From NCBI GenBank assembly GCA_011191875.1, contig DUFC01000029.1:2660-66659 (forward strand): a stretch of DNA of 64,000 nucleotides, in the 5' to 3' direction. Below the pieces are notes generated by a model. It saw only the letters and a program-made list of their open reading frames with translations, was not told the DNA's origin and searched no databases. The position numbers were made by a program, and so were the translations under genes. Source of the DNA: Dehalococcoidia bacterium. GTDB lineage: Bacteria > Chloroflexota > Dehalococcoidia > Dehalococcoidales > W498. Below are positions 35,555 to 53,553 of this stretch, piece by piece (position 1 is the stretch's first letter; each line of letters starts with the position of its first letter).

Positions 35555-35588
35555 TTTGTTCTATAACTACCTTTATAGGGGAACAACC

Positions 35589-37086: not shown

Positions 37087-37097
37087 TCTCTCCTCCC

Positions 37098-37487: not shown

Positions 37488-37489
37488 GA

Positions 37490-37999
37490 TTATACCTCTT
37501 CTATTCTATCGAATTCACGCTTGGCTGACCCACAGACAGGACATACCCAATCGTCTGGTATATCATCGAAAAGCGTCCCCGGTTTTATGCCGCTGTCGGG
37601 ATCTCCTAGATCCGGGTCATAGACATAGCCGCAAACGGCACATTTGTATTTTGACGCTCTGAGAGCTGCCAAAACCTGCTTCATTTCGTCCACTTGACCA
37701 CACATACCACTGGTACACCTGTTCGCTGGTGCTTTGTTAGTTTCTACCTTTATCTCCTCTTGTAGCAGGTTCAGTTTTTGCCTAAGCCGTTCCTCATCGA
37801 AGCCGACTAATATGTCACCATCGATATCAACCACCGGTACACTCAGTTGCTTTGAGCTACTTACCATCTCATCTCGAGCGGCTGAATCACTGGCAACATC
37901 AAATCCTTGATAGGGGATGTTATTTTCGTCCAAGAATTTCTTAGTTCTCTTGCACCATGGACAGTTAGGCGTAGAATAAACTTTAACCTGTTGTGCCAT
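37490..37999 (-). CDS. glutaredoxin-like / rubredoxin fusion protein
   Basis: N-terminus [25 protein letters not shown]...[14 protein letters not shown] (Grx/NrdH fold, CPWC). C-terminus [47 protein letters not shown] (canonical rubredoxin). AGGAGGTG lies 6 nt before ATG 37999. Confidence 0.8.
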
Positions 38000-38032
38000 T
38001 TCGATCACCTCCTAATAGAGTCAATATCGACA

Positions 38033-38155
38033 TTAACAGGAAGGCCAAGGCAATCTCGGATGGTGTTGGCAATTTGCCCATTGAGCCTGTCTACCTTTCT
38101 TGAGCTTACTACATACAGACAAGTAATCCAACTTATATAAAGCCTCAAGATTCAT
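38033..38155 (-). CDS. candidate 40-aa small ORF (MNLEALYKLDYLSVCSKLKKGRQAQWANCQHHPRLPWPSC)
   Basis: GGGAGGTG SD 4-6 nt before ATG 38155. No recognisable family. Below the ORF-track length cut-off. Confidence 0.2.
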   Translation of the reverse strand: MNLEALYKLDYLSVCSKLKKGRQAQWANCQHHPRLPWPSC

Positions 38156-38189
38156 TTATCACCTCCCGTTTTATTTTTTGAATAAAGAT

Positions 38190-38879
38190 TTAGCGGACCT
38201 CCGACTTTATCTGGCTTGATTGAGCAGCTTTTTTATAATATAAATTGTGTCGACAGTCATCCATACAGAGCCTGCAATTATTGCACTTCAGGGGATATCG
38301 CTCAATAGTACCATCTGAACTAGAGTTAATAGCCTCGGTAGGACACACATCGGCACAATAAGCAAAGCTGCACTGGCGACAGTATCTCTTCTTCCACAGC
38401 CACCAGTCGAACTCATGGTAAATATGATAGAGTAATACTACGATGGCAGAGAAGAAAGCGACGTCATGAATCATCAGGGAAAACCTAAACATTTCAGATG
38501 GTACTATACCCTTCAGGAACCACTGCAATATGCCAGTCAGTACGAAAAGGACAAAACCGAACGCCACAAATGACTTATGTATCCTTTGCCAAGTATCGGG
38601 ATTAGGCGAGGTGGTAGTATTCCAGAATGCGGCTTCCCTCAGCCACTGCCAGGCGGCTCTGCTATTCGTTAAAGCATAGACCACTGGTGTACCCACCAAG
38701 ACTACCGCAGCAGTACGGTGAATAAGGCGACTCCAACTGCTGGCAGCTAATCCAGAGAGGCCGGGGACAACTAAAGGCAAACCAGTAATCAATAACATTA
38801 AGAAGGCTGCTACCATTATCCAGTGGACTATACGCTTACTGCTTTTTATATTATCGACACCAGTGCTCTTATTTGACAT
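38190..38879 (-). CDS. membrane b-type cytochrome-like domain (FdnI/Ni_hydr_CYTB-like) fused to a C-terminal 2x[4Fe-4S]-type Cys motif
   Basis: ..RIVHWIMVAAFLMLLITGL.., four TM helices with conserved His (..LIHR.., ..MIHD.., ..LYHIYHE..), then CRQCSFAYCADVCP and CNNCRLCMDDC. Confidence 0.45.
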   Translation of the reverse strand: MSNKSTGVDNIKSSKRIVHWIMVAAFLMLLITGLPLVVPGLSGLAASSWSRLIHRTAAVVLVGTPVVYALTNSRAAWQWLREAAFWNTTTSPNPDTWQRIHKSFVAFGFVLFVLTGILQWFLKGIVPSEMFRFSLMIHDVAFFSAIVVLLYHIYHEFDWWLWKKRYCRQCSFAYCADVCPTEAINSSSDGTIERYPLKCNNCRLCMDDCRHNLYYKKAAQSSQIKSEVR

Positions 38880-39000
38880 GAATCACCTCAACCTTAACTC
38901 AAAATAAATAGTAATTATAAATATTATTATGTAATAACTTAAAACACATGTTGATTTCATCCAGAGCCTTGAGATTATTATTAGCCTCTACCAGTGTTAT

Positions 39001-40236
39001 CTACATAAGCTCTTTCTCGCTAGATTCGATAGCCCGCTGCAGTTCGGCGCTGAGTAATGGTGGTAGTCCCTCAATATCTACCTCGAGAAAACCTCTAACT
39101 ATAGTAGCTGTGGCCTCAGCCCGTGTTAGCCCCCGAGCCATCAGGTACTCCACTTCTTCTTCAGCTATCTTTCCTACTGCTGCCTCATGGGATAGGTCAA
39201 TGCCGTCTAGTGTACCCTTAAGCTCGGGTATGGCGTGAATCACTCCTTCTCCCTGTAGGATTAGTCCGCGGCATTCCAGGTGCCCTTTAACCTCAGGAGC
39301 ATTGCCTTCTATGTAGCCCCGGGCGATAATATTACCCCCAGTAGTTATGGCCCGTGATATGATCTCTGTCTTTGCCCCTTTAGCGTTGAGGATTGCCCGT
39401 GAACCAACATCCAGTGCTGACCCCTGAGCTGCCACTAGAATACTGTTATATCTGACAACCGCGTTTTCACCTACACATCTAGCAGTAGGATACATTTGTA
39501 ACGAACGAACTGGCTTCATGAGTACATAATTACTGAGAAATAAGCCATCCTCTTCAACGATCGCTGCAGTGCGTGGGCGGACCGCTACCTCTGGATTCCA
39601 GCTATGTATCATAGTGAAGGTAATCTTAGCCCCCCTCTTTATATAGAACTCAGAGACTCCCAGATGTAATCCCGGCTCCTCTTTGGAAGCAGTAGTACAT
39701 CCGGTAATAATATGGAGTTCAGAGTTTTCTTCAGCAATTATGATATTATGAATATTTTGAGCCAGCTTACCCTTGGCTAGGTAAAGACAAGCTTGAACCG
39801 GATAGATAGTCTTAGTACCAGGTAGAGCTCTTATGAAATAGCCGTTACTCTGACTCAGCTCAACATTGGCAGTGTACTTATCAGTATCTACGGCTACCGC
39901 CTGCCACCAATAGTCTGATAGCCAATCATAATTTTCTAGAGCCTGGCTTACCGGCATTACTTCTATACCCTCTTGCCAGCTGGAAAAGTGGACTGGTGTA
40001 TTGTCCGTCTGGATAAAGGTTCCTGACCTCTGGCTCACATCATCAAGAATGACCCCTGCCTCTAACATCTGCTCCTTGGTCTTGGCGGGAAGCTCCGACG
40101 GGTCGGACTGATATGGTTGTGCCTCGGCTGAGCTAACATAATTAGTCAGGTCTACATCCTCACCAATAGCTGCTGGTTTGGTTGAGGCGGCTTTGGCCTT
40201 ATCTCTATACGTCTTGGAAGACTTTATTTCACGCAC
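39001..40236 (-). CDS. sufB: Fe-S cluster assembly protein SufB/SufD family
   Basis: C-terminal SufBD beta-helix (..SRA......A.......LI...A...A.P.L.I....V...H.A..G.I.EE..FYL.SRG....A). Preferred GTG start at 40236, 8 nt after GGGGAG, overlapping the sufC stop (GTGCGTGA). The track start at 40323 is probably too long. Confidence 0.8.
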   Translation of the reverse strand: MREIKSSKTYRDKAKAASTKPAAIGEDVDLTNYVSSAEAQPYQSDPSELPAKTKEQMLEAGVILDDVSQRSGTFIQTDNTPVHFSSWQEGIEVMPVSQALENYDWLSDYWWQAVAVDTDKYTANVELSQSNGYFIRALPGTKTIYPVQACLYLAKGKLAQNIHNIIIAEENSELHIITGCTTASKEEPGLHLGVSEFYIKRGAKITFTMIHSWNPEVAVRPRTAAIVEEDGLFLSNYVLMKPVRSLQMYPTARCVGENAVVRYNSILVAAQGSALDVGSRAILNAKGAKTEIISRAITTGGNIIARGYIEGNAPEVKGHLECRGLILQGEGVIHAIPELKGTLDGIDLSHEAAVGKIAEEEVEYLMARGLTRAEATATIVRGFLEVDIEGLPPLLSAELQRAIESSEKELM

Positions 40237-40981
40237 TTGGTACACTCCCCGCAAGGCATTTGACACACTCCTCATAGCCCTTCTCCCTGATAGTCGCCAG
40301 AATCTCATGCGGGTCTCCTGCACAGCCTATTCTGCCATCAAGCATGACATAGCCAGTGCGAGCATTAACATAGTCCAGAATATGACCAGTATGGGTGATA
40401 ATAAGCCCCATGCACTTTCGGGTACGAATGTGACAATTTTTGTCCAGCAACTCATTTATTAGGTCGCCTATCAGGGCTATATTTACCAGGTCGACACCGG
40501 ATTCTGGCTCGTCAAATAAAGTTAGTTCTGGTCTTTGAGCTAGTAACTGCATTAGCTCGGAGCGCTTTATCTCACCTCCTGAAAAACCATAGTTTATCTC
40601 TCTATCTAGAAGCTCAGTCATATTGGCTCTCTCAGCTAACTTATCTATAGTTACTTTATCCCCTCTATCTCCCATAGAGGCATCAAGCATATCACGTGTC
40701 TTTACCCCTCGAACCACCGGGGGACGCTGGAAAGACATGCCAATTCCTAAGCGGGCTCTCTCATCCACAGGCAACTTGGTTATGTCTTTGCCCTTGAAAA
40801 GGATACTGCCCTTGGTTACCTGGTATCTGGGGAAACCCATTATTGCCATGAGGAGAGTAGTCTTGCCACTACCATTAGGACCGAAGAGAACATGTGTTTC
40901 GCCAGTCCCAATATCCAAATTTATACCCTGCAGAATCTCCATACCATCTATAGCTACAGATAGTTGCTTAATCTCCAGCAT
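40229..40981 (-). CDS. sufC: Fe-S cluster assembly ATPase SufC
   Basis: MLEIK.L.V......IL.GI.L.I..GE.H.L.GPNGSGKTTL, ..FSGGE.KR.E..QL.., ..LDE..SG.D. Confidence 0.92.
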   Translation of the reverse strand: MLEIKQLSVAIDGMEILQGINLDIGTGETHVLFGPNGSGKTTLLMAIMGFPRYQVTKGSILFKGKDITKLPVDERARLGIGMSFQRPPVVRGVKTRDMLDASMGDRGDKVTIDKLAERANMTELLDREINYGFSGGEIKRSELMQLLAQRPELTLFDEPESGVDLVNIALIGDLINELLDKNCHIRTRKCMGLIITHTGHILDYVNARTGYVMLDGRIGCAGDPHEILATIREKGYEECVKCLAGSVPSA

Positions 40982-41017
40982 ATTTACTGCTCCATCTTAT
41001 TTTTCTTAACTACTTAT

Positions 41018-41548
41018 TCAGCCTCCGTCCAAAGACGGGCGCTCTTTGGTAACAAACCAACCTGCTGGATCCTTGAGATATTCGTAGTAGTCAAGGAGAA
41101 CTAGATGATGTTCTCTTTCTTCGGCAGCTAAGGTCTCATAAAAGTCTCTTTCAGTATCATAGGTAGCGGTCTGGCTTCGGTCTTTATACAGGTCATAACT
41201 CTTACTTTCCATTCCCATGGCTGTTTGTATAGCATCAAGCTCAGTGGCAGGAGCCTTTATGTCAGAGCCAATTTCATCGGTCGCTCTGGCAAATATGGTT
41301 CTTAATCTTTTACCCCCATCAGGCTGAAAATTAGTCTTGGGCCAGACCTTTTTACTCCGAAAAGTATCATAAATCTCCTCAAACTTCTGACGGTGAATGT
41401 CTTCCTCATTGGCTAGAGATTGGAAAAGTTCTCTACCCAGCTGGTTATCACTGCTCTGGCTTACCTTTCGGTAATACTCCTTACCATCAATTTCCATCTG
41501 TATAGCAATTTGAAGTGCGCCTAGGATTTTATCCTGTTCGGTTTCCAT
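41018..41548 (-). CDS. ferritin-like / rubrerythrin-family diiron-domain protein
   Basis: ..AIQMEIDGKEYY.., ..LANEEDIH.., ..AMGMESKSYDLY.., ..LAAEEREH.. (two ExxH pairs). Confidence 0.55.
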   Translation of the reverse strand: METEQDKILGALQIAIQMEIDGKEYYRKVSQSSDNQLGRELFQSLANEEDIHRQKFEEIYDTFRSKKVWPKTNFQPDGGKRLRTIFARATDEIGSDIKAPATELDAIQTAMGMESKSYDLYKDRSQTATYDTERDFYETLAAEEREHHLVLLDYYEYLKDPAGWFVTKERPSLDGG

Positions 41549-41578
41549 ATTCCAACCTCTCTTAAGTTTGCAAGGTAA

Positions 41579-42067
41579 TTATCTAACTTTTCGCAATGTT
41601 TTTTTTAGTTGGGAAAACATTCTCAGGTGTGCCTTTTCCTCGTCTATTATATTGAGAACTACTTTTTGGTCAGGCTGTCTTACGAAGTTCTGCATCTCTG
41701 TATAGAAAAGGATAGAATCCTTTTCAGCTTGAATGCCGATATCAGTGGCTTCAATTTCACTGGTTACCTTCTCGGCTTTTTGTTGAGCCTCACTGATATT
41801 TGAGAACACTGAGCTATCAACTAGTGATTTCAGATAAAGCATATATTCTTCGGCATAATCTTGCGGAGGCTGATATTGACCTACAGCATCTAGCATGCCC
41901 TGAAAAGTATTCAGATGTTTCTTCTCTTCGTTAGCCAGATAATCATAGATATCCTTGGAATCCTTATTCTGGGTTTTGTTAGCCAAAGCCTGATAGAATG
42001 CTACCCCGTTTCTTTCTATATTTATAGCTATTTCTACGAGTTCACTGCCTGTAAAAACGATAGACAT
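41579..42067 (-). CDS. ferritin-like / rubrerythrin-family diiron-domain protein (paralogue)
   Basis: ..AINIERNGVAFY.., ..LANEEKKH.., ..GIQAEKDSILFY.., ..IIDEEKAH. Confidence 0.55.
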   Translation of the reverse strand: MSIVFTGSELVEIAINIERNGVAFYQALANKTQNKDSKDIYDYLANEEKKHLNTFQGMLDAVGQYQPPQDYAEEYMLYLKSLVDSSVFSNISEAQQKAEKVTSEIEATDIGIQAEKDSILFYTEMQNFVRQPDQKVVLNIIDEEKAHLRMFSQLKKTLRKVR

Positions 42068-42093
42068 TTTTAAATTACCTCCCTAGTTGTTTT

Positions 42094-43008
42094 TTATTCG
42101 CTAAGCCTCTGTAGGTAACTATACGCTTGAAGGGTAGCCTTAGCCCCTTCACCAGCAGCTATCACTATCTGCTTTTCAGGAACACTGGTAACATCCCCGG
42201 CGGCAAAAAGCCCAGGTACACTTGTTTCATTGGCACAATTAACCTCTATTTCCCCAAGATGATTTAGAGTGACTACCCCTTTCACAAACTCTGAGTTAGG
42301 GATGAGTCCAATCTCGACAAAAACACCACCAACGTCCAACTCCCTTTCCTGTCTGGTCTTCAAGTCTCTTATTCTTATCCCCTCAACAAAGTTCTCCCCT
42401 TCTATCTCCAGCACTTCGTGTTCCAGGAATTTCATCAGGTTATTAGCCTTTTCCAGTTTATCAATTAGTATGGGGTCGCCGGTGAGAGGAGTCAACGATA
42501 TCAAGTAAGTATGGTCAGCGATCCTAACCATGTCAATAGCAGCTTCCAGAGCCGAGTTACCACCTCCAATGACAGCTACTTTCATACCGCCAAAGAGGGG
42601 GCCATCGCAGACAGCGCAGTAAGTAATCCCTTTGCCTCTAAGCTTTTCCTCACCCGGAACATTTAGCAAACGAGAACGCTTACCGGTGGCTACTATGGCT
42701 GTCTTAGCCTCGTAGGTTTCGTCTCCACCTATCCTGACCTCAAAGCCTTGGCTTATTTGGGACAAGTTACTAACCCCTTGCCCGATTTTCATATCTACGG
42801 GAAACTGTTTTACCTGCTTCTCAAATTTCTCCATTAACTCAGGACCTTCTATGAACTGGTAGCCCATATAGTTCTCTATTCCCGCAGTAACATTTGGCTG
42901 ACCTCCAAGGTCTTGGCTAATGAGCAATGTACTTAGCTTCTTTCGGGCAGCATACACCGCCGCTGTCATCCCCGCCGGACCACCTCCGATAATCATTAAA
43001 TCATACAT
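42094..43008 (-). CDS. trxB: thioredoxin-disulfide reductase-like flavoprotein
   Basis: MYDLMIIGGGPAGMTAAVYAAR.., redox-active ..YCAVCDG.., ..V.VIGGGNSA.E.A.., ..FAAGDV. Confidence 0.85.
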   Translation of the reverse strand: MYDLMIIGGGPAGMTAAVYAARKKLSTLLISQDLGGQPNVTAGIENYMGYQFIEGPELMEKFEKQVKQFPVDMKIGQGVSNLSQISQGFEVRIGGDETYEAKTAIVATGKRSRLLNVPGEEKLRGKGITYCAVCDGPLFGGMKVAVIGGGNSALEAAIDMVRIADHTYLISLTPLTGDPILIDKLEKANNLMKFLEHEVLEIEGENFVEGIRIRDLKTRQERELDVGGVFVEIGLIPNSEFVKGVVTLNHLGEIEVNCANETSVPGLFAAGDVTSVPEKQIVIAAGEGAKATLQAYSYLQRLSE

Positions 43009-43009
43009 T

Positions 43010-43072
43010 TTACTTAATTCTCTTGCACCAGAGGTGCCCGGGCGTAGAATAAACTTTAACCTGTTGTGCCAT
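43010..43072 (-). other. 20-codon leader ORF derived from a duplicated glutaredoxin 5' end ([20 protein letters not shown]), stop 1 nt before the trxB ATG
   Basis: AGGAGGTAATCGAAATGGCACAACAGGTTAAAGTTTATTCTACGCC differs at 1 of 46 nt from the Grx-Rd start region (37954-37999 plus SD). TAAaATG junction with trxB. Confidence 0.45.
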
Positions 43073-43147
43073 TTCGATTACCTCCTGGTAGGGTCAACAT
43101 TACCATAACAGGGAGACCGGGAAGCGAGACATTAGAGAATCAATAAG

Positions 43148-43933
43148 CTACTTACTAGCTTTTTTCTTAACCGAGACTGGAATCTTCTTGGCTTTAACCT
43201 CAGCGGTTTTGGGAAAAGTAACCTCTAAAACTCCATCCTCAAAACTAGCTTCAATCTTTTCGGCATCGGCGTCAGTAGGAAGAGCTATTGCACGAGAGCA
43301 TCTACCATAAAGACGCTCACAGGTATAGTAGTCTTCCTCCTTGACCTCGGTTTCAGATTTTCGCTCCCCTTTTACCACCAGTCTGTCGCCGACAACTGAA
43401 GCATCTACGTCCTCTGCCTTCATCCCGGGGAGTTCAACCTTTATCACAAACTTATCTTCCTTCTCAAACATCTCTACTGGAGGTGCCCAGTGTCTTTCCT
43501 CTATAGGGCGATGCTTCCACACTTCGGGATGAAGCACTCGACCCATAACATCCTCAAAGTGCCGCTCCATCTCATCTAGATCAGTCAATGGTCTACGACC
43601 CCACACTTCTGGGTGAAGCGATGGGGGATACGTGGGTTGAAATGCTGGACCTTCTACCCCCGCCAATTCGGGGTGAAAAGCTCGACGAATGGCATTCTCC
43701 AAGCGCTGTTCTATCTCCCCTAGATCCGTCAATGGTCTACGACCCCATACTTCGGGGTGAAGCGATGGGGGATACGTGGGTTGAAATCTTGGACTTTCTA
43801 CTCCCCTTGCCAGTTCAGGGTGAAAAGCTCGACGAACGGCATTCTCCAAGCGCTGTTCTATCTCTGGATACCCACCGTATGGTTTCAACCCCCACATTTG
43901 GCGAATTTCAGACGGTAAATTTTCTAGTGCCAT
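43148..43933 (-). CDS. Hsp20/alpha-crystallin small heat-shock protein with a long internally duplicated N-terminal extension
   Basis: C-terminal ACD (..PPVEMFEKEDKFVIKVELPGMKAEDVDASVVGDRLVVKGERK..., ..ASFEDGVLEVTFPK). AAAGGAGG SD. Confidence 0.85.
   Translation of the reverse strand: MALENLPSEIRQMWGLKPYGGYPEIEQRLENAVRRAFHPELARGVESPRFQPTYPPSLHPEVWGRRPLTDLGEIEQRLENAIRRAFHPELAGVEGPAFQPTYPPSLHPEVWGRRPLTDLDEMERHFEDVMGRVLHPEVWKHRPIEERHWAPPVEMFEKEDKFVIKVELPGMKAEDVDASVVGDRLVVKGERKSETEVKEEDYYTCERLYGRCSRAIALPTDADAEKIEASFEDGVLEVTFPKTAEVKAKKIPVSVKKKASK
43574..43864 (-). repeat. in-frame tandem duplication (147 + 144 nt) inside hsp20
   Basis: EIEQRLENAVRRAFHPELARGVESPRFQPTYPPSLHPEVWGRRPLTDLG is followed by EIEQRLENAIRRAFHPELAGVEGPAFQPTYPPSLHPEVWGRRPLTDLD. 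A degenerate third unit follows (EMERHFEDVMGRVLHPEVWKHRP). Confidence 0.85.
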
Positions 43934-43997
43934 AGCTAAACCTCCTTTAGTTTATTGTCGCAAACTAGGTCCCGCTTCCCAGACCTTTAGGATTCAT

Positions 43998-44212
43998 CAA
44001 TAATGATAGCAAGCTAGCAATAACGAAGTCATAAAATGGAAGGAGAAAAAGTTACAAAATTATGACATTGTAGGCAGTGTTTTGCGATAAGTTTACAATG
44101 TTATTAGTATCCTTCGACGTAGGATTCATTAAAGCTATTCAGTCCAGGAGTTGGTCTATGATGTAGCCTATCTTGGGGATGGTGCGAATCAGCTTGGGAG
44201 CGATTAGGAGCA
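43998..44212. repeat. left arm of a ~215-bp inverted repeat bracketing the two-component system; contains a decayed response-regulator 3' end
   Basis: The reverse complement aligns along its length with 46795-47007. The minus strand at 44139-44198 encodes PKLIRTIPKIGYIIDQLLD*, against the RR end PKLIRTIPKTGYIVDQPLA*. Confidence 0.85.
44003..44063 (-). promoter_or_regulatory. candidate outward promoter (toward hsp20) plus conserved 44-nt upstream core
   Basis: On the minus strand: core 44063->44020, -35 TGACTT (44031-44026), 17-nt spacer, -10 TATCAT (44008-44003). The hsp20 ATG is about 70 nt downstream. Confidence 0.45.
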
Positions 44213-44263
44213 CCAATACTAGTAACGATGGTGAAAAATGCATAGGATTCTTGTTGTTTAAAT

Positions 44264-46090
44264 TTATGGATGATTCTCGCTAGGTAAACCATGACTCAAA
44301 GGTATGGTAAAGAAGAAAGTGGAACCTTTGCCGAATTCCGATTCAACCCATATCTGACCGCCGTGTGCTTCCACCAGCCTGCGACAAACCAATAATCCCA
44401 GTCCTACCCCTCCAATTCCACCAGATCTGGACTCTTCAAGACGCTGGAAGGGCTCAAATAGCTTGGACCGGTCAGAAGGAGATATACCACTCCCTTGGTC
44501 ACTAACGCCGATAACCAGGTGCTCCTCCTCCGGTCTGGCGGAGATTCGTATCTCTCCTCCTTGCGGTGAGTACTTAATTGCGTTTTCAATGAGATTATAG
44601 AGGATACGCTCCAGTCTCAATTCATCAGCATAAACTGAGGGTAGTTTCTTCGGGAGGTCCACAACAAACTGACGTGATGAAGACTGGCGTTTTATTCTCT
44701 CGACTATGCCTTGAATTACCTTCTTAGTATTAGTTGCTTCAGCATGAAGAAACAGACGGTCTGCCTGTATTCTAGACAGCTCCAAGAGATTTCCCAACAT
44801 GTGGGAGAGCGATTCTGCTTCCAAAGCTGCATCGTTGAGTAGTTGATGTGTTTCTTCTGGAGATAGACGTTCCGCTTCGGTTAGAGCCGTATTGACAGCT
44901 CCTGTGATAACAGTTAGAGGACTGCGTAGCTCATGGGAGACAAGGCCGATGAACTCATCCTTTAACTGGTCTAGTCTTTTACGCTCAGTAATATCCACTA
45001 CCACTGACCGATTGGCCACCACCTGACCACCTTTATCATGGACTGGCCGCACTGATAAGTTAATCCACACCTTACTGCCGTTGGCTCGGCAAATCTCTAA
45101 CTCCTCGTCACGGATCTCCTCGCCAGCAAGAAACCTCTGAAAAACCCCCTTTGCCTTACCTTTTCCGTCTGGCGTATCGGCATACAAGTCAAGCACCCGC
45201 CGCCCAACCAACTCATCCAAGCTATAACCAAATAGTTCGGTAGCACCACGGTTAGCCTGCTTAATAAAGCCATCTACCCCAACCGAGAAATAGGCATTGG
45301 GTGCTTCATTGTAGAGGTCTCGGTATCGCTTTTCGCTTTCCTGAAGCTCACCCTCAGCTATAAATGTGTGCAGTGCCTGGCCGATATAGACCCCCACCCG
45401 TTCCAACAATTGGACTCTTTCTAGAGGGATTTTGTTTTCACTTTCATCAGCCAGATGGATTAGTCCCAAGATTCTACCTCTATCTTTCATCGGCACCAGA
45501 GCTACTGATTCGTAGCCATACTGGTTACATACATTCCCAGTTTGGTCCTTGAGCTCCTCTGGAACCGAGGCCAGAAGCTTTGTCGTGCCGTTGCTGAGGA
45601 AGGAGCCGCCCTTAGTATATGTGAGAAACCCAGAGCGGGTATTTCCCATTATCACATTAGCGCACATGCATTTGTCCGACTTGATACATAGAGGGTTTTC
45701 AACCTCGTAAAACTTTCGGTTGAATCCGGTATATGAGACATAGGGAATATTCCCATCGTCGTCCAAGAGACGGATGCCCACACAGCAGCATCCTGAATAT
45801 TTCTTAACTTGCTTGACAAGTCGCTCTAGGTATTTCTTCATATCCCGGCTCTGGCTCAGCGTCTCCAAGACGCTAATAAGCAAATCCCTTTCCGCTTGTA
45901 CGAATGCAGTTGTACCCTCAAAGCCAACCCTCGGGGACCTGTTCGATGGCTCCCTTACTACTCTTCGATTCTTTTTAGAGATACTCACTGGGATGTTCCT
46001 CACGAGTTTTTTTATTCCGAAACATTGGCCTTCTATGATAATATCTAGTATTTTAGTTGCAGCTAATAGTCTAGTCAAGATATCATCCAT
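44264..46090 (-). CDS. soluble sensor histidine kinase: Cys-rich GAF - PAS - HisKA - HATPase_c
   Basis: No TM segments seen. GAF-like region with ..[15 protein letters not shown].., ..[12 protein letters not shown].., ..[16 protein letters not shown]... PAS (..[15 protein letters not shown]..). H-box ..[14 protein letters not shown]... N/G boxes ..[11 protein letters not shown].., ..DQGSGI.., ..GGVGLGL. Confidence 0.9.
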
Positions 46091-46103
46091 ATATGAAGAG
46101 ACT

Positions 46104-46132
46104 TTGACATCCGCTGAATTTGGAACTATTAT
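46104..46132 (+). promoter_or_regulatory. candidate promoter of the response-regulator gene
   Basis: TTGACA (46104-46109), 17-nt spacer, TATTAT (46127-46132). Lies inside the track ORF N-terminal extension, which supports the GTG 46168 start. Confidence 0.45.
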
Positions 46133-46167
46133 TCTTACTTAGAGTAGGTAAACTCGGAGATACTTCG

Positions 46168-46866
46168 GTGAGGCAATTTCGCATACTGGTAGTTGACGAC
46201 GAGGAACGGATCCTCAACTTCCTCAGATCAAAGCTTAAAGCTTCAGGCTACGAGGTGCTTACCGCCAGCAATGGACTTGAGGGCCTGGAGCAGGTTGAGG
46301 CTCAAGAGCCTGAACTGATTGTGCTTGACCTCCTCATGCCTGAGATGGACGGCTTAGAGATGCTTAAGGAATTACGCAGTTTCTCAACAGTGCCGGTTAT
46401 TATTCTTACTGCCAAAGGTGCAGATGCTGACAGAATTAAAGGGCTCCAACTAGGAGCCGATGACTACCTGCCGAAGCCCTTCAACCCCGACGAACTGGTA
46501 GCTAGGATCGAGGCAATAAAGCGCCGGCTTAAACCTGGCGAGAGAAGTAAAACCCTAGAAGTTTTCGATTTAGGGTATGTAACCATCGATTTCAAGAAAC
46601 ATAGTGTGCTTGTCAGCGGTGAGGAAAAATACCTGACCCGAATCGAGTGGCTCTTACTTAGCCAGCTTGTCAACAATGCTGGCCGTCTTATGTTATACGA
46701 GGAACTACTCAGCCGGGTGTGGGGGCCGGAATACCGCGATGATGTCCAAATCCTCAGAACATGGATAAGTCGGCTGAGAAACAAGCTGGAAAGTGACCCC
46801 ACCAATCCTAAGTTAATTCGCACCATCCCCAAGACAGGCTACATCGTAGACCAGCCCTTAGCCTGA
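46168..46866 (+). CDS. OmpR/PhoB-family response regulator
   Basis: ..ILVVDDEE.., ..LDL.MPEMDG.., ..LTAKG.., winged-helix C-terminus ..LT..E..LL..L..N.G......LL..VWG......V..L...ISRLR.KLE........I.T.PK.GY. Confidence 0.9.
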   Translation: MRQFRILVVDDEERILNFLRSKLKASGYEVLTASNGLEGLEQVEAQEPELIVLDLLMPEMDGLEMLKELRSFSTVPVIILTAKGADADRIKGLQLGADDYLPKPFNPDELVARIEAIKRRLKPGERSKTLEVFDLGYVTIDFKKHSVLVSGEEKYLTRIEWLLLSQLVNNAGRLMLYEELLSRVWGPEYRDDVQILRTWISRLRNKLESDPTNPKLIRTIPKTGYIVDQPLA

Positions 46867-47007
46867 ACGGCTTCAATAAATCGCATCCAAGGAGGCTAAT
46901 ACCGTCGTTAACCTTTTCGCACGACACAGCCAATAATGTAATAATTTTGTAACTTTTTCTCCTTCCATTTTATGACTTCGTTATCGCTACCCCGCTATTA
47001 TTATTGG
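46795..47007. repeat. right arm of the ~215-bp inverted repeat (includes the authentic RR 3' end)
   Basis: See the left arm. The 44-nt perfect core at 46941-46984 is the reverse complement of 44020-44063. Confidence 0.85.
46941..47001 (+). promoter_or_regulatory. candidate outward promoter (toward pfpI-sod...) plus conserved 44-nt upstream core
   Basis: Core ATAATTTTGTAACTTTTTCTCCTTCCATTTTATGACTTCGTTAT; -35 TGACTT (46973-46978), 17-nt spacer, -10 TATTAT (46996-47001). Confidence 0.45.
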
Positions 47008-47160
47008 TGTAAGCGCTTTCAAGTAAGCCACTGGCAATAACAAGTGGACAGACTCCGTAGATAGAGGACGTGACATAGGAATGCTGAAACTTGTAGGGTG
47101 TACCAGGAATAGAAACAACCGTAATAAAGGTTATCAGACTAAGCAAGGGAGCTGAAGAGT

Positions 47161-47682
47161 ATGCTCGATGGGAAAAGGATTGCCATCCTGGCCGAAGAGG
47201 ACTTCGAGGACTCTGAACTTATCGAACCAATGAGGGCAATGAAGAATGCCGGTGCTAAAGTGCTGATCGTCGGCAGTGGTTCCAAGGAAACTTATAGAGG
47301 TAGAAGAGGCAGTGTCACTGTAAGCGTCGATGCTATGGCTGATAAGGTCAAGGCTGAGGATTTTAATGCTATCATTATACCTGGTGGTTACGCTGCTGAT
47401 AGAATGCGCTTGTACCAATCCATGGTTGAACTGGTGAGGAAGGCACATGAATTAGGTAAGGTGGTAGCGGCTATTTGCCATGGACCACAATTACTCATCT
47501 CAGCCGAAATAGTTAGAGGACACCGGGTTACCTCCTGGCCTTCGTTAATGGTAGACCTCAGAAACGCCGGCGCCGACTGGGTAGATACACCTGTAGCTCA
47601 AGATGGAAATATCATCACATCGCGCAAGCCAGCAGACCTACCAAGATTCAATAAAGCAATAATCGAAGCTCTGAGAGACTAG
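47161..47682 (+). CDS. DJ-1/PfpI-family protein (intracellular protease / deglycase type)
   Basis: ..KRIAIL..E.FED.EL..P.., ..IPGG.., nucleophile elbow ..AAICHGPQLL.., ..NIITSR.P.DLP.F. Confidence 0.85.
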   Translation: MLDGKRIAILAEEDFEDSELIEPMRAMKNAGAKVLIVGSGSKETYRGRRGSVTVSVDAMADKVKAEDFNAIIIPGGYAADRMRLYQSMVELVRKAHELGKVVAAICHGPQLLISAEIVRGHRVTSWPSLMVDLRNAGADWVDTPVAQDGNIITSRKPADLPRFNKAIIEALRD

Positions 47683-47721
47683 CCCTAGTTTATTCTAATG
47701 ATACCGAGAGGAGGAGAAAAA

Positions 47722-48300
47722 ATGGCTTACACAGCAAACGACTACAACAATCTCATCGGAATGGAGGGCTTCAGCGAAACCCTGTTGAAGAACCACTTCA
47801 CTCTCTACCAGGGCTATGTGACCAATACCAACAAGCTACTGGACCTACTTGCTACAGTGCTTGGAGAAGGGAAAATTGGTACTCCAGAATATTCTGAACT
47901 GAAGCGGCGGATGGGTTTCGAGTTTAATGGTATGCGGCTCCACGAGTACTACTTTGGTAACTTAGGTGAAAAAGTAGCTTTGGACAAAACGGGTAAGCTT
48001 GGTAGTAAGCTATCTGCAGATTTTGGTAGCTACGAAGACTGGGAAAAGGATTTCAAAGGCACAGGCACTATGCGCGGTATTGGCTGGGCTATACTGTATC
48101 AGGACAGTATCACTGGAAAGCTCCTGAATTTTTGGATTAATGAACACGAAACGGGTCATCCCGCCGGTTGCTTTCCCATTCTAGTAATGGATGTCTTTGA
48201 GCATGCCTACATCACCGATTATGGGCTGAAGCGAGTTGACTATATAGAAGCCTTTTTCAGGAATATAAATTGGGCTGTAGTGGAAAGCCGACTGCAATAA
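47722..48300 (+). CDS. Fe/Mn-family superoxide dismutase-like protein
   Basis: GAGGAGGAG SD before ATG 47722. ..LKNHFTLYQGYV.., ..FNGMRLHEYYF.., ..VMDVFEHAYITDYG.. (the D..EH metal-ligand motif). Confidence 0.8.
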   Translation: MAYTANDYNNLIGMEGFSETLLKNHFTLYQGYVTNTNKLLDLLATVLGEGKIGTPEYSELKRRMGFEFNGMRLHEYYFGNLGEKVALDKTGKLGSKLSADFGSYEDWEKDFKGTGTMRGIGWAILYQDSITGKLLNFWINEHETGHPAGCFPILVMDVFEHAYITDYGLKRVDYIEAFFRNINWAVVESRLQ

Positions 48301-48318
48301 GCGACTGTTTACCGGAAG
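48250..48318 (+). repeat. direct repeat A (last 15 codons of sod + 18 nt of 3' flank)
   Basis: By hand count, 59 of 69 nt are identical to 53869-53937. Confidence 0.8.
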
Positions 48319-48497
48319 AAGGCATCGAGAACTACCTGTATCTAGCGGTTACTAGCTTTGGTGTTTTCGCTGTTATCAAGACCGCAGGCGCTTTCATGAT
48401 TATAATAGGTATTACCCTCGGCATAACAGGTTACGCGTTATGGAGTATAGCCAGAGAAAAATCTGTCAAGAACAACTCATGGAGAAAGCTGTACTAA
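48270..48497 (+). CDS. possible small membrane protein (start unclear)
   Basis: The track ORF has a hydrophobic stretch ..YLYLAVTSFGVFAVIKTAGAFMIIIGITLGITGYALWSI... Its TTG start lies inside sod, and there is no convincing SD. Confidence 0.2.
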   Translation: MGCSGKPTAISDCLPEEGIENYLYLAVTSFGVFAVIKTAGAFMIIIGITLGITGYALWSIAREKSVKNNSWRKLY

Positions 48498-48508
48498 GAT
48501 AACTTGAA

Positions 48509-48730
48509 ATGGCTGAGATAAAGTTAGACTGCACAGGTGAAACTTGTCCGGTTCCTTTGGTTGAAGCCCGCAAGGCTTTGAGGAAAGCAAAGGAAGGCGA
48601 TGTCGTAGAAGTTATCGGAACACATCCCTCTTCCAAAAAGGAGATACCAATGGCTGTCAAAGCGCTGGGGCTGGAACTTATCGATGTGGAGGAGAAAGAC
48701 GGAGTTTGGAAGATAAGGATACAGAGGTAG
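48509..48730 (+). CDS. TusA/SirA-family sulfur-carrier protein
   Basis: MAEIKLDCTGETCPVPLVEARKAL......GDVVEV.. (CPxP motif). Confidence 0.8.
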   Translation: MAEIKLDCTGETCPVPLVEARKALRKAKEGDVVEVIGTHPSSKKEIPMAVKALGLELIDVEEKDGVWKIRIQR

Positions 48731-48745
48731 AAGGAGGAAGTAACT

Positions 48746-49168
48746 ATGGCTGATAAAGCTACCATAATAGTTCATAGCGGCGATATGGACAAGGTTTACA
48801 GTGCCCTTATAATAGCTAATGGGGGACTAGCAATGGGGATGGAAGTATCACTCTACTTCACTTTCTGGGGGCTCCAGCGTCTCAAGAAGGGAGGTCTTGA
48901 GAAGGGACCTCTCTCTAAGATGAACATGCTGGGCCTCGGCAAGTGGATGGTGAAGCGGAAGATGAAGAAGGCTGGAGTTGTTTCACTAGAGAAGATGATG
49001 CAGGACTTCGTGGAGCTAGGTGGCAAAATCCTTGCCTGTGACATGACCATAGAAATAATGGGGATAAAGGAAGAAGACCTCCAGAGGGATTTGATATCGG
49101 ATTACTGCGGAGTTGGAACTTACCTTAATGAAGCAAGGGAATCAAAAATAACCCTGTTCATCTCTTAG
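48746..49168 (+). CDS. DsrE/DsrF-like family protein
   Basis: ..KATIIVHSGDMDKVYSALIIANGGLAMGMEVSLYFTFWGL..L.. is typical of DsrE2/peroxiredoxin-like DsrE-family proteins encoded next to TusA. Confidence 0.65.
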   Translation: MADKATIIVHSGDMDKVYSALIIANGGLAMGMEVSLYFTFWGLQRLKKGGLEKGPLSKMNMLGLGKWMVKRKMKKAGVVSLEKMMQDFVELGGKILACDMTIEIMGIKEEDLQRDLISDYCGVGTYLNEARESKITLFIS

Positions 49169-49177
49169 GAGAAGGGA

Positions 49178-50353
49178 ATGTTGAACAGACCTGTTTACCT
49201 AGATAATGCAGCAGCCACCCGGCTGGACGAGCGGATACTCGAGGCGATGAGACCGTACTTCTTCGATATTTACGCCGTTGCCACCTCGGAATTTGGCTAT
49301 TCCCAAGGTATAGAAGCTCGTGAAGCCTTAGATGGCGCTAGAGAGGCTCTTGCTGCTACTCTGGGGGCAGCACCGGAAGAGTTCATTTTTACCTCGGGAA
49401 GTACCGAATCCTCAAATGTTGCCCTAAAAGGAGTGGCACTAGCTCTTGGTAAAAAGAAAGGTAAACACGTAATTGTCTCAAAAATCGAAGATTTCCCAGT
49501 ACTTAATAGCGCTAGAGCCCTTGAGAAGCAAGGGTTTCAGGTGACATATCTGGATGTAGATAGTGACGGTTTTGTGGACCTTGATAAACTCAGGGAATCT
49601 ATCACGAACGAAACCATTCTGGTCTCTATCCAGCATGCCAATCAGGAGATCGGCACCATCCAAGATATTAAAAATATCGGTCTCATCTGTCGTGAGAAGG
49701 GAGTGCTCTTTCACACTGATGCCACGCATACCTTCACCAGGGTTCCCCTTGATGTGAAGAAGATACCCGTGGACTTAATAACAGTGTCGGCACATACCAT
49801 CCACGGGCCAAAGGGCACAGGGGGACTTTACATCCGTAAGGGGACAAGCCTAGCCAAGTGGGTAGATGGGGGATTCCAGGAGTTCGACCTCCGGGCAGGG
49901 CTCGAAAACATACCCGGCGCGGTGGGTTTCGCTAAAGCGGTAGAACTGGTTACCACCCAGGAAACCGAGCAGATACAACTAGTGCGTGATCATGTTATAA
50001 GCCGCATACTTGCCGAGATACCTGATACCGTTCTCAATGGTCATCGCTGGAAGAGACTCCCGCAGAATGCCAATATTTCGTTCCACTTCATAGAGGGTGA
50101 ATCTATCACCCTGCATCTGGATATGCATGGTTTTGCCGTGAGCACTGGCTCCGCATGTTTCAGCCGCTCGTTAGAGGGTAGCCACGTTATCTTTGGCATT
50201 GGTGGTGACCACGAAAGGGCACACGGCTCAATTCGTTTTACCTTTGGGCGTTACAATACTATAGAAGACACCAACGCCCTGGTTAATACACTGGCTGAGG
50301 TGGTGCGGGAGCTTAGAAGTATCAGCCCGTTGGGCAAAGAGAAAAAAGAATAG
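49178..50353 (+). CDS. cysteine desulfurase (NifS/IscS class V aminotransferase)
   Basis: ..YLDNAATT-like (YLDNAAATRLD), ..FTSG.TES.N.., ..H.D..Q.., ..SAH..HGPKG.G.LY.., active-site ..STGSAC. Confidence 0.9.
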   Translation: MLNRPVYLDNAAATRLDERILEAMRPYFFDIYAVATSEFGYSQGIEAREALDGAREALAATLGAAPEEFIFTSGSTESSNVALKGVALALGKKKGKHVIVSKIEDFPVLNSARALEKQGFQVTYLDVDSDGFVDLDKLRESITNETILVSIQHANQEIGTIQDIKNIGLICREKGVLFHTDATHTFTRVPLDVKKIPVDLITVSAHTIHGPKGTGGLYIRKGTSLAKWVDGGFQEFDLRAGLENIPGAVGFAKAVELVTTQETEQIQLVRDHVISRILAEIPDTVLNGHRWKRLPQNANISFHFIEGESITLHLDMHGFAVSTGSACFSRSLEGSHVIFGIGGDHERAHGSIRFTFGRYNTIEDTNALVNTLAEVVRELRSISPLGKEKKE

Positions 50354-50364
50354 GAGGAATAGAG

Positions 50365-51000
50365 ATGAGATTCCCATATAGTGAAACTGTACTGGAACAC
50401 TTTCGCCACCCTCGTAATGTGGGCAAGATTGAGAATGCCGACGGGAAGGCAATAGAGGGTAGTCCAGCCTGCGGCGATATGGTGTCCGTATATATAAACG
50501 TTGACCCTAAGACAAATACCATCTCAGACGTTAAGTTCGAATCTTACGGTTGTGCTTCTAACATTGCCACCGGTTCTATCATTACCGAACTAGCCAAGGG
50601 AAAGACACTGGATGAGGCTAAGAAGATTACCTGGAAGGAAGCTTCAGAAGCCTTGGGAGGACTTCCCAAAATTAAGGCCCATTGCTCGGTGCTTGCTGTG
50701 GAGGGTTTACGTTCGGCTGTTGAAAACTATGAAGAGCGCCACGGTCTGGTTAAGGATAGAAAACCGACTACGGTAGAGACAGTGCGCAGACGCCTTAAGA
50801 AAGTCATGAACCCTATGGCTGGATTAGACCTGGTACGCACCAACTTGGTGCGAGATATTAATATAAAGAACGGAACTGTCCGAGTAGTCATCGACTTACC
50901 TCCAGACCACCAGTTTGCTTCGGCAATAAAAGAAGAGATAACAGAGAAAATAGAACCGCTCTGGGATGTGAAAGAAGTAGTGGTTGAATTTACGGAATAG
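50365..51000 (+). CDS. IscU/NifU-N scaffold domain fused to a DUF59 (SufT/MIP18-like) domain
   Basis: ..HF.HPRNVG.......G..GSPACGDM.., ..F.SYGCASNIA.., ..K.HCSVLA.., then ..VMNPMAGLDLV..NLVRDI.I..G.V.V.IDL. Confidence 0.8.
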   Translation: MRFPYSETVLEHFRHPRNVGKIENADGKAIEGSPACGDMVSVYINVDPKTNTISDVKFESYGCASNIATGSIITELAKGKTLDEAKKITWKEASEALGGLPKIKAHCSVLAVEGLRSAVENYEERHGLVKDRKPTTVETVRRRLKKVMNPMAGLDLVRTNLVRDINIKNGTVRVVIDLPPDHQFASAIKEEITEKIEPLWDVKEVVVEFTE

Positions 51001-51043
51001 AAGTCGGTAATAATTCAGGCCCATGTACGGTCCCGGGGATATA

Positions 51044-53536
51044 ATGGCTGAAAAGTCTACACTTAATAGTCAGAAATCAGAGAAGACTCATATTCACATA
51101 ACCGGAATGACTTGTACTACTTGTGCCGCCACCATCGAGAAGGGTCTAGTGGAGACACCTGGGGTAGAGCAGGTAAACGTGAGCTTCGCCTCAGAAAAGG
51201 CTTCTATAGAATATGACCCTTCCAAGGTAGACCTTGCTAAAATTAAGAATACTATCTCTCAAATAGGCTATGGGGTAGCTACTAAGAAATCTATCTTCCC
51301 TGTGGCCGGAATGACCTGTGCCTCCTGTGTCAGTCGGGTGGAGGAGGCTCTTACTAGCGTGCCAGGTGTAATTTCCGCCAGTGTTAATCTAGCCTCAGAG
51401 AAAGCCACTGTAGAATATGTTGAGGGGACAGAGCTAGGCGCTCTCAGACAGGCGGTAAAAGAAGCGGGCTATAAGTTAGGCTCAGAGGCAGAAACATTGG
51501 AAGATGTTACCACCGCTGCCCAGCGGGAGATTAGAACCATACGTAACAGGCTTATCCTAGCGGCTGTCCTAGCCAGCACAATCATGGCTCTAATGTGGAC
51601 TCCCTTTTTCGAGGGGAAGGCCTATCTGCTTTGGGCTCTGGCGACGCCGGTGCAGTTCTGGGCAGGCTGGCGATTTTATCGTGGGACTTGGGGAGCACTT
51701 AGGCACCGAACCGCCAACATGAATACCCTGATTGCTGTAGGCACTTCGGCTGCCTATCTTTACAGTATGATAGCTGTTCTCTTCCCTAGACTTTTTACCG
51801 CTGGCGAGCTGGAACCACATCTGTACTTCGATACCTCAGCCATGATTATTACCTTGATTCTACTTGGTCGTTTTCTGGAGGCTAGAGCCAGAGGACAGAC
51901 CTCGGCGGCAATAAAGAAGCTCATCGGTATGCAGCCGAAGACTGCTCTTGTTATCCGTGATGGCGAGGAGGGAGAAGTTCCTATTGAAGACGTTCAGGTT
52001 GGTGACCTCGTCTTGGTACGACCGGGGGAGCGAGTGCCCGTGGATGGTATTATTCGCCTGGGGTATTCCAGCACAGATGAGTCTATGATTACCGGGGAGA
52101 GCATCCCAGTGGAAAAGAAGGTGGGTGATAAGGTTATCGGTGCCACCATTAATAAGACAGGCAGTTTTCAATTAGAGGCGACCAAGGTAGGTAAAGACAC
52201 AACACTGGCTCAGATTATCCGATTGGTGGAGGAAGCGCAGGGAAGCAAGGCGCCTATTCAACGCCTAGCCGATGTCATCGCTAGTTTCTTCGTACCGATA
52301 GTGATTGGCATTGCTATCATTACCTTCATCATCTGGTACTCCGTGGGGCCAGATCCAGCCCTTACCTTTTCCCTCCTCAACTTTGTTGCTGTGCTTATTA
52401 TCGCCTGTCCCTGCGCGCTGGGACTGGCCACTCCAACCGCGATCATGGTAGGCACCGGCAAAGGAGCTGAGCATGGTATTCTTATCCGGAGTGCTGAGGC
52501 ACTGGAGAGGTCCCACCAAATAAGAACCGTGCTGCTTGACAAAACCGGCACTCTAACCCGGGGTGAACCCGAGGTAACCGATATCGTTGCTGTCCCAGCT
52601 TCTTCCCAGGAGGAGGTTCTTCGGCTGGCAGCCTCAGCTGAGCGTGATTCAGAGCATCCGCTCGGCGAGGCTATAGTCAAGGCGGCTCTGGAGAAGAGGT
52701 TAGAAGTATCTTCAACCAAAGACTTCAATGCCATCCCCGGACAAGGTGTCGAGGCTTCAGTGGCTAGGAAACACCTTTTGCTGGGTAACCTGACATTAAT
52801 AACGGATAGGGGTCTTTCTCTGAACGGATTGGGGGAAGAAGCAGAGCGCCTGTGGGAAAAGGGCAAGACAGTGATGTTTCTCGGGTTAGATAGCCAGGTA
52901 GTGGGAATCATTGCTCTGGCCGATACTCTCAAACCCAATGCCAGGGAGGTGTTGGAACAGCTACACAAGTTAGGAATTAAGGTAGTTATGCTTACCGGAG
53001 ACAATCGACGCACTGCTGAGGCTATTGCCCGAGAGGCAGGCATTGACGATGTTCTCGCCGAGGTGCTCCCAGAGCATAAAGCTCAGGAGGTAAAAAGGCT
53101 ACAAAATGAGGGAAAGGTAGTGGCAATGGTAGGTGATGGTATAAACGATGCCCCAGCACTGGTTCAGGCGGATGTGGGTATCGCTATCGGTACCGGCACT
53201 GATGTCGCCATAGAGACAGGAGACGTTACGCTGATTAGCGGTGATTTAGAAGGGATTGTAACCGCCATATCCCTGAGCAAGCACACCATGAAAACCATTA
53301 GGCAGAACCTCTTCTGGGCGTTTGCCTACAATACTACCCTTATCCCAGTGGCAGCAGGCGTATTATACCTCGCCTTCGGCCAAACCGGTGTACCCTCAGG
53401 GCTTCACTTTATTCTGGGCAAATATGGATTCCTGAATCCAATCCTAGCTGCGGCAGCAATGGCCGCTAGCTCTGTAACCGTCGTATTCAACTCACTCCGT
53501 CTAAGAAGGTTTAAGCCAGCCAAATTCATAGACTAA
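51044..53536 (+). CDS. copA: copper-translocating P1B-type ATPase with two N-terminal HMA domains
   Basis: GMTCTTCA and GMTCASCV; TGES; CPC ([12 protein letters not shown]); DKTGTLT; ..GDG.NDAPAL. Confidence 0.93.
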
Positions 53537-53553
53537 CCAAAGGAGGTGTCTCA

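Follow-up and report, generated by a model that had tools for sequence, protein, structure and literature searches.

A two-component system flanked by two outward copies of a putative stress-regulon promoter in an uncultured Dehalococcoidia bacterium

In a stretch of 64,000 nucleotides (nt) from contig DUFC01000029.1 of a Dehalococcoidia bacterium, hereafter called the window, the genes of a sensor histidine kinase and of an adjacent response regulator (RR) lie between two long inverted arms, and beyond each arm a string of redox and stress genes is read outward. What are these arms, and do they serve the genes on both sides? With a small preponderance of confidence over doubt, we read the two arms as outward copies of one RR-dependent regulon promoter/operator placed around the two-component system. 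All coordinates are window positions.

The repeat search returned two collinear inverted blocks, 43995-44095 with 46909-47009 (101 nt, 86% identity) and 44123-44199 with 46806-46882 (77 nt, 82%). When the arms were aligned with each other by blastn, 43995-44199 matched 47009-46806 over 206 nt with 81.1% identity, two gaps and E=5e-51, and the left arm gave no further significant match inside the window. The left, kinase-side arm (43995-44212, minus strand; 81% to the reverse complement of 46806-47009) comprises a relic of the RR tail, a spacer and a promoter/operator directed toward hsp20. The right, RR-side arm (46795-47009, plus strand), delimited by the repeat search and blastn, comprises the true RR 3′ end, the spacer and a promoter/operator directed toward pfpI. 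The left arm sits between the kinase stop codon and hsp20, and the right arm between the RR stop codon and pfpI; the former lies 3′ of the kinase stop because the two genes are read away from each other, the kinase on the minus strand and the RR on the plus strand. Within the arms, the 44-mer at 44020-44063 is the exact reverse complement of 46941-46984, with no third exact copy in the window; in simulations, a perfect run of at least 44 nt at 81% arm identity had a probability of about 0.003.

The relic (44139-44198, minus strand) was recognized by comparing its translation with the RR tail. It corresponds to the last 19 codons and the stop of the RR gene, reads PKLIRTIPKIGYIIDQLLD before the stop codon, and has no gene body; the genuine tail is PKLIRTIPKTGYIVDQPLA. 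The two match at 15 of 19 residues with the stop codon at the identical place, and the DNA upstream of the relic bears no resemblance to the RR. These results agree with an earlier note on this DNA, which had described inverted arms about four-fifths identical, a perfectly conserved 44-nt core, a decayed RR 3′ end without gene body in the left arm, and an RR frame that would stay open into this copy.

The core belongs to a longer promoter/operator of 68 nt, AAATGTCATAatTTTGTAAC-N13-ATTTTATGACTT-N17-TAnnAT, which extends 8 nt upstream of the 44-mer, starting at AATGTCAT. The left copy occupies 44003-44070 on the minus strand, as located by a position weight matrix (PWM; 83.6 bits) and the consensus of 123 unique sites. 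Its elements are TGTCAT at 44067-44062, TGTAAC at 44056-44051, TATGAC at 44033-44028, the -35-like TGACTT at 44031-44026 and the -10 box TATCAT at 44008-44003. The right copy occupies 46934-47001 on the plus strand (77.8 bits), with TGTAAT at 46937-46942, TGTAAC at 46948-46953, TATGAC at 46971-46976, TGACTT at 46973-46978 and the -10 box TATTAT at 46996-47001. An element is found at the same position after the RR stop at 31 metagenome loci and in L001-L003, the three Dehalococcoidia/Dehalococcoidales metagenome-assembled genomes that hold the closest RR relatives (66-71% identity).

The most informative blocks of the motif are TGTCAT (positions 2-7) and TGTAAC (13-18), which form a direct repeat with an 11-bp period. 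As half-sites the left copy has TGTCAT-AATTT-TGTAAC and the right one TGTAAT-AATTT-TGTAAC; this PhoB/WalR-type layout is conserved across the 123 unique sites. This pair lies at about -72 to -55, with its centre some 63 nt upstream of the expected start, and a third block, TATGAC (36-41), overlaps the -35; GTCATA (3-8) and TATGAC (36-41) make an inverted pair as well. The direct repeats of the earlier note, ATTTTGTAAC and ATTTTATGAC, 23 nt apart, are real and conserved but not the best description of the element, since the 11-bp pair fits known sites better. The note's outward TGACTT, 17-nt spacer and TATCAT or TATTAT are present in both arms, and a promoter scan independently picked the same combinations, TGACTT-17 nt-TATCAT on the left and TGACTT-17 nt-TATTAT on the right. 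A sigma-70 scan of both copies gave ATGACT-18-TATCAT/TATTAT, with 9 of 12 matches.

The layout TGTCAT-N5-TGTAAC is also that of the pho box. The sites of CtsR, HrcA/CIRCE, HspR/HAIR, PerR/Fur and Rex were compared by eye, as consensus sequences, with the motif, and none fits. From the WalR/VicR consensus TGTWAH-N5-TGTWAH (PMC4168254), TGTCAT-N5-TGTAAC differs by one mismatch. An Rfam scan of 43000-48000 with E values up to 1 found no known RNA element in the arms or in the pfpI leader, a scan for terminators detected no intrinsic one behind either the RR or the kinase, and a comparison of the pfpI leaders from five relatives revealed no visibly conserved leader or second promoter.

The element is not restricted to this locus. 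A degenerate pattern, AATGTNATANNTTNNNNANNTTTN10TTTTRTRAYTT, derived from five copies (the window pair and L001-L003), matched at least 119 metagenome contigs, nearly throughout from sediments; the runs that contain the window locus itself are marine, estuarine and wetland sediment metagenomes. All motif-linked counts given here (out of 120, 123, 125, 130 or 144) rest on sites among the matches listed. At least 144 sites in related Dehalococcoidia contigs scored 20 bits or more with the 68-nt PWM, and 20 of these, although they do not fit the search pattern, carry the same conserved blocks. The consensus of the 123 unique sites is A-AATGTCATA-at-TTTGTAAC-TTTTTcc.Cc.cc-ATTTTATGACTT-cTtcAT-N11-TAtaAT. 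Positions that the pattern left free are strongly conserved anyway (T13 0.90, T15 0.93, A16 0.96, A32 0.85, A48 0.98; also T49 0.78), and the -10 TAnnAT stands at a fixed distance, 17 nt past TGACTT (T 0.86, A 0.89, A 0.79, T 0.91). In the window, the best position after the two copies scored -3.8, and shuffled windows contained nothing above 0. No site of at least 5 bits was found in 1.25 Mb around RR homologues that are at most 50% identical (L004-L080), against seven sites of at least 20 bits in 62 kb around the three close relatives. An open reading frame (ORF) starts not more than 400 nt downstream of 124 sites (median gap, 66 nt); among the 20 sites lacking such an ORF, 14 have less than 250 nt of sequence remaining. 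The earlier note had reasoned that the 44-mer might turn out to be a generic repeat at unrelated places; copies do occur at many loci, yet in oriented promoter positions before coherent redox and stress genes.

The genes around the sites tie the motif to the RR on one side and to stress genes on the other. In L001, L002 and L003 the element stands directly after the RR stop despite differing next genes, namely pfpI in L001, a gene for pyruvate:ferredoxin oxidoreductase in L002, and in L003 a small ORF with a glycosyltransferase gene behind it. An orthologous RR (64-84% identical) ends 13-162 nt, mostly 40-90 nt, upstream of 34 of 125 sites. When the nearest upstream gene was counted, Trans_reg_C came first (31 of 120), followed by ODP (7) and histidine kinases (5), with no other DNA-binding family among the top 25 upstream families listed. 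The second commonest upstream neighbour, ODP (7 sites), is a family of metallo-beta-lactamase fold and oxygen-binding di-iron type.

Enriched among the first downstream genes are rubrerythrin, ferredoxin, pyridine-nucleotide disulfide oxidoreductase, DJ-1/PfpI, AhpC/peroxiredoxin, Hsp20, superoxide dismutase (SOD), Usp and glyoxalase. Of the 130 sites tested, 37 have homologues of window string genes no more than 3 kb downstream, and several such homologues stand individually behind a site in other genomes (glutaredoxin (Grx)-rubredoxin, TrxR, rubrerythrin, Hsp20, SOD, NifS, YHS/CopA). These data support the core as a putative regulatory element that is under functional constraint and linked to the RR gene, and the pattern as a whole would be that of a regulon whose regulator gene carries one adjoining site.

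In the window genome, such genes are gathered into two strings behind the two promoter copies. The left string (36553-43933, minus strand) encodes Hsp20, a TrxR-like protein, two rubrerythrin-like proteins, SufC, SufB/D, a cytochrome b561-ferredoxin protein, a glutaredoxin-rubredoxin protein, a PAS_10 protein and a rubrerythrin. The right string (47161-53712, plus strand) encodes DJ-1/PfpI, SOD, TusA, DsrE, NifS, NifU, CopA and YHS. The assignments made earlier for both strings, the kinase and the RR were borne out by Pfam.

Expression of the region was followed in assembled contigs of public metatranscriptomes. The most abundant transcript is that of hsp20, with a depth of up to 60. Its contigs stop at 43975-43983 (minus strand) in 8 of 10 runs, with ends at 43981, 43981, 43983, 43976, 43979, 43975, 43979 and 43979 in eight metatranscriptomes, and none extends past 43983. 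In two runs they pass straight into Illumina adapter sequence, at 43983 and 43975, and these are true fragment ends. No RNA contig covers 44086-47162, save two faint pieces within the kinase gene, both from a single run; therefore hsp20 is not transcribed by read-through from the kinase. Contigs bridge the gap between hsp20 and TrxR, so that at least those two genes are co-transcribed. The genes of the two-component system are barely detectable in RNA while hsp20 is high. On the other side, pfpI contigs with a depth of 4-11 begin at 47163, 47164, 47177 or later (to 47310) in seven runs; in the two best runs the first covered position is 47163 or 47164, already 2-3 nt inside the coding sequence. 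Behind the RR-side site of L191, the ferritin-like and pfpI genes reach an RNA depth of 37-369, against 0-2.5 over the RR gene, and therefore the RR-side copy can act as a promoter. At the divergent site pair of L191, strain divergence cuts the RNA alignments short.

ORF 46168-46866 (plus strand) encodes the RR, an OmpR/PhoB-family protein of 232 amino acids (aa) with a GTG start that is also called in other assemblies. It contains Response_reg (E=5e-33) and Trans_reg_C (E=4e-18) domains recognized by Pfam, and the structures nearest to it are RegX3, KdpE, MtrA, PhoP and RpaA. Its best NCBIfam match is RpaB (NF045944), at 218.8 bits with a cut-off of 330, and it scores below every NCBIfam equivalog cut-off. 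A sigma-70-like promoter of its own, TTGACA-17-TATTAT (46104-46132, plus strand; 11 of 12 matches), is predicted by consensus match.

The kinase (44264-46090, minus strand) is a cytoplasmic protein, with no membrane domain predicted by Pfam, composed of a Cys-rich GAF, a PAS, a HisKA (E=7e-13) and a HATPase_c domain (E=1e-33); it is encoded next to the RR, as a cognate kinase would be. Its H-box SHELRSPL is invariant among the orthologues, and its core is closest in NCBIfam to PnpS, WalK and PhoR. The cysteines of the GAF domain (GCxC, DKCxC, CNQYGYES; window 45400-45800, residues about 100-210) are conserved in the orthologues L140 and L125, which makes this domain a candidate Fe-S, metal or thiol redox sensor. 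From the regulon one may reasonably guess at a redox, oxygen or metal signal. The kinase ORF has 608 aa in the window, and most gene callers start it later, at 574 aa. The divergent control region (46050-46132) is very tight, with the RR promoter 14-42 nt from the kinase start codon, and the best minus-strand promoter match falls within the 608-aa ORF.

Other lineages have different sensors beside the same RR, as the MASE3 membrane kinases of L001 and L003. In L142 (4250-8091), KaiC (594 aa) and KaiB (105 aa) are encoded between the divergent RR and kinase genes, directly upstream of the kinase, whose sensor part differs and is not Cys-rich; among the loci compared, KaiBC was present near the RR in L142 only. 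In L003, a gene for a stand-alone receiver is placed between those of the MASE3 kinase and the RR, and a weak copy of the motif (21 bits, 9807-9874) is located upstream of it.

Putting these observations together, we propose a model in which the cytoplasmic kinase would use its Cys-rich GAF/PAS domains to perceive a redox or oxygen signal and would phosphorylate the OmpR-type RR. Dimers of the RR, which we infer to be the operator-binding protein, would then bind the half-sites and help RNA polymerase to use the weak -35 (TGACTT). Leftward, this would activate hsp20 and the redox/Fe-S string; rightward, pfpI-sod and the sulfur/Fe-S/copper string.

How the bracket arose can be read from the relatives. 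The right arm is taken as ancestral because the order RR-site-(ferritin-like gene)-pfpI is common among them, including L001 (71% RR identity). The kinase-side copy is most probably an inverted duplication of the RR 3′ end, the spacer and the promoter, and the origin by inverted segmental duplication of the RR 3′ end with its downstream DNA, as previously proposed, is supported. A second outward-facing site after the kinase is also present in L142, L158, L128 and L118; an RR-tail relic accompanies it in L142 and L118, with a shared 9-nt deletion, and is missing in L158 and L128. With such copies in L142 and L118, the duplication appears neither private to the window genome nor recent. Across the non-coding spacer, identity is 69% (window) and 65% (L142) when the two arms of a genome are compared, against 51% for the kinase-side arms of the window and L142; either independent duplications or gene conversion from one arm to the other would give this pattern. 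In otherwise 20% diverged arms, the perfect core was probably left unchanged mainly by purifying selection. Gene conversion was considered for the 44-mer and is not needed, as about 32 of its positions are strongly and about 12 weakly constrained; the probability that these 12 would all be identical at 20% divergence is about 0.07.

Several observations weigh against a bidirectional RR-dependent regulon and have to be set beside those that favour it. The 5′ ends of hsp20 RNA are 20-28 nt downstream of the -10 box (44008-44003), where 7 nt is canonical, and thus 13-21 nt short of the expected +1 near 43996, a shortfall that would be explained by the loss of extreme 5′ ends in library preparation or assembly. 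The predicted pfpI leader (47008-47162, about 150 nt) has no RNA contig in all 7 metatranscriptomes; it may be processed away, a start more proximal to the gene may be used, or the site may be little used in those samples. The list of downstream genes also includes unrelated families (adh_short, NTP_transferase, RpiB). L140 and L125, whose kinases are the most similar ones (65% and 61% identical), have no kinase-side site, and therefore the bracket is not essential to the system. Adjacency and co-occurrence are also compatible with another clade-specific regulator, and the overlap of the operator with the -35 and the spacer would fit a repressor too. Of the bidirectional regulon suggested in the earlier note, the common membership of both strings in one regulon of the relatives and the left promoter, with its RNA 5′ ends, are supported, but the uncovered pfpI leader leaves the right side without such support.

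That the element serves some other regulator, or is a strong clade-specific promoter with an upstream element to which the RR is adjacent by chance, is unlikely. The T-rich tracts between the half-sites do resemble UP-element-like DNA, and three quarters of the sites are not beside an RR. The RR family, however, is the only DNA-binding family enriched by the sites among the top 25 families listed (31/120), the half-sites fit the layout of OmpR/PhoB-type sites, the motif is absent around more distant RR homologues, and one site by the regulator per genome plus several elsewhere gives the look of a regulon. If the RR is the binding protein, it might act instead as a repressor that occludes the -35 and spacer and is released by the stress signal. 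We consider this rather unlikely, and activation rather than repression, given binding, reasonably probable. The conservation that continues through the -35 into the spacer (A48 0.98, T49 0.78) and the high expression of hsp20 in situ next to barely detectable two-component genes are consistent with repression, and CosR, an OmpR-type oxidative-stress RR, represses sodB and activates ahpC (PMC3139631). Against it, the -35 is imperfect (TGACTT/ATGACT, 9/12 overall), as is typical of activator-dependent promoters. Moreover, the upstream half-site pair is centred near -63, which is a classical position for activators.

The arms themselves invite two further explanations. Inverted arms of 205 nt with a 44-nt perfect core could be the substrate of an inversion switch, which would swap the string before each gene of the two-component system or change the RR C-terminus; the relic keeps its open frame and stop codon, and the greater likeness of the arms within a genome (69% and 65% vs 51%) could reflect gene conversion. 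Inversion of the kinase-RR segment had been raised as a secondary possibility, and we now regard it as very improbable. At least six independent assemblies from different samples are colinear over 43900-47200 at 99.9% identity or more, all in one orientation, rare variants being possible. At each of the 31 RR-linked sites from metagenomes, what follows the RR tail is pfpI or ferritin and never an hsp20 string. No recombinase was found among the Pfam-scanned genes of 33950-53712 (a 53-aa ORF at 36301-36462 was outside the scan), and four DNA runs contained no strand-changing joints, a weak point as Logan unitigs break inside the 44-mer. It is scarcely credible that the core is a generic dispersed or mobile repeat without regulatory role, similar to repetitive extragenic palindromes (REP) or miniature inverted-repeat transposable elements (MITE). 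Such a repeat would be found at many loci, as the core is, and DNA depth at 43907-44107 reaches 160-199x vs about 11x elsewhere (runs X1 and X5), with heterogeneous loose ends at 44069, where many contigs diverge. This spike is due to the conserved operator recruiting contigs from many other loci or species of the same samples. The core lacks terminal inverted repeats, a hairpin and any Rfam match; it has a strict orientation to the downstream gene, a fixed distance to the -10 and a coherent gene set, and only two copies are present in the window. The inverted repeat is, then, a by-product of promoter duplication and not a switch, a mobile repeat or a new genetic element.

Compared with known systems, a regulon promoter/operator under control of the RR would share several features with PhoB and its pho box and with WalR (YycF/VicR). 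In all of them an OmpR/PhoB-family RR is paired with a PAS-HisKA kinase, and the operators consist of two hexamer direct repeats with an 11-bp period in conserved DNA that reaches a weak -35. The PhoB and WalR systems control phosphate or cell-wall regulons, unlike the redox and oxidative-stress genes found here; in addition, the half-site pair here is more distant from the start (about -72 to -55), and a third element covers the -35. RpaB of the cyanobacteria, the family of the best NCBIfam match, is likewise of the OmpR type, and light and oxidative-stress genes are under its control by way of TTACA-type direct repeats (HLR1). The reverse strand of the operator reads GTTACAAAAT; the period of HLR1, however, is 10 nt instead of 11 nt, and the kinase is not NblS/Hik33-like in its sensor part. 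In the oxygen-sensitive Campylobacter jejuni, the OmpR-type RR CosR directly controls the oxidative-stress genes sodB, ahpC, dps and rubrerythrin-like genes (PMC3139631), as would be the case here; CosR differs in that its site is another one, 21 bp long and AT-rich, that it is an essential orphan in C. jejuni, and that it has no close sequence relationship to the present RR. The invertible switches fimS and hin also have inverted repeats that bracket a segment next to promoters, but here the promoters are inside the arms and directed outward, so that inversion would not switch them off. Functionally, the system is closest to CosR and RpaB and is a member of no named equivalog. Neither the motif nor a stress regulon of Dehalococcoidia turned up in searches of the literature. 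A two-component regulon with a duplicated promoter is itself of a known kind, and the motif probably marks a stress regulon not described before.

Dehalococcoidia of marine and estuarine sediments are abundant, uncultured and thought to be oxygen-sensitive, and we know of no account of how their oxygen defence is regulated. For this group the locus provides concrete candidates for the sensor kinase, its regulator and a 68-nt operator, together with a candidate regulon whose members can be recognized in metagenome sequences directly. The candidate regulon includes rubrerythrins, peroxiredoxin, SOD, DJ-1/PfpI, Hsp20, Fe-S repair and copper export. The proposal is one that can be tested with recombinant proteins and needs no culture of the organism, and with the motif as a probe, the clade can be searched for stress genes whose function is unknown.

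A broader possibility, put forward tentatively and with more doubt than confidence, is that one RR/operator pair is the master switch of an oxygen and oxidative-stress regulon across a clade of uncultured, nominally strictly anaerobic sediment Dehalococcoidia. The lineages would plug in different sensors (Cys-rich GAF, MASE3 in L001/L003, the kinase after KaiC-KaiB in L142), and the arms would be kept alike by gene conversion. If true, this uncultivated group would gain its first defined stress regulon, with a hint of a timer (KaiBC) input into it.

Among the metagenome sites, a compact version of the window bracket is seen in back-to-back divergent motif pairs with genes both ways and 9-283 nt between the 68-nt sites, located at L092:6274-6472, L108:1838-1982, L110:2216-2626, L121:5162-5576, L191:8745-8992 and L194:602-746. 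In the window, the left string is followed on the same strand by RadC (35589-36293) and a SBP_bac_5 solute-binding protein (33950-35554), which are unlikely members of the stress string. In L200 (9863-12234), which belongs to the window species, copA is called as two genes of 542 and 258 aa, vs 837 aa in the window, possibly due to a frameshift or an assembly error of that sample. A strain variant of hsp20 in RNA contig X25 has a 3-nt insertion at 43654. Hsp20 itself (43148-43933, minus strand) has an unusual extension, with three tandem N-terminal repeats of about 48 aa ahead of the alpha-crystallin domain. The repeats are encoded at 43507-43864 with a period of 144-147 nt, are 83-90% identical, and read EIEQRLENA.RRAFHPELA...PTYPPSLHPEVWGRRPLTDL.

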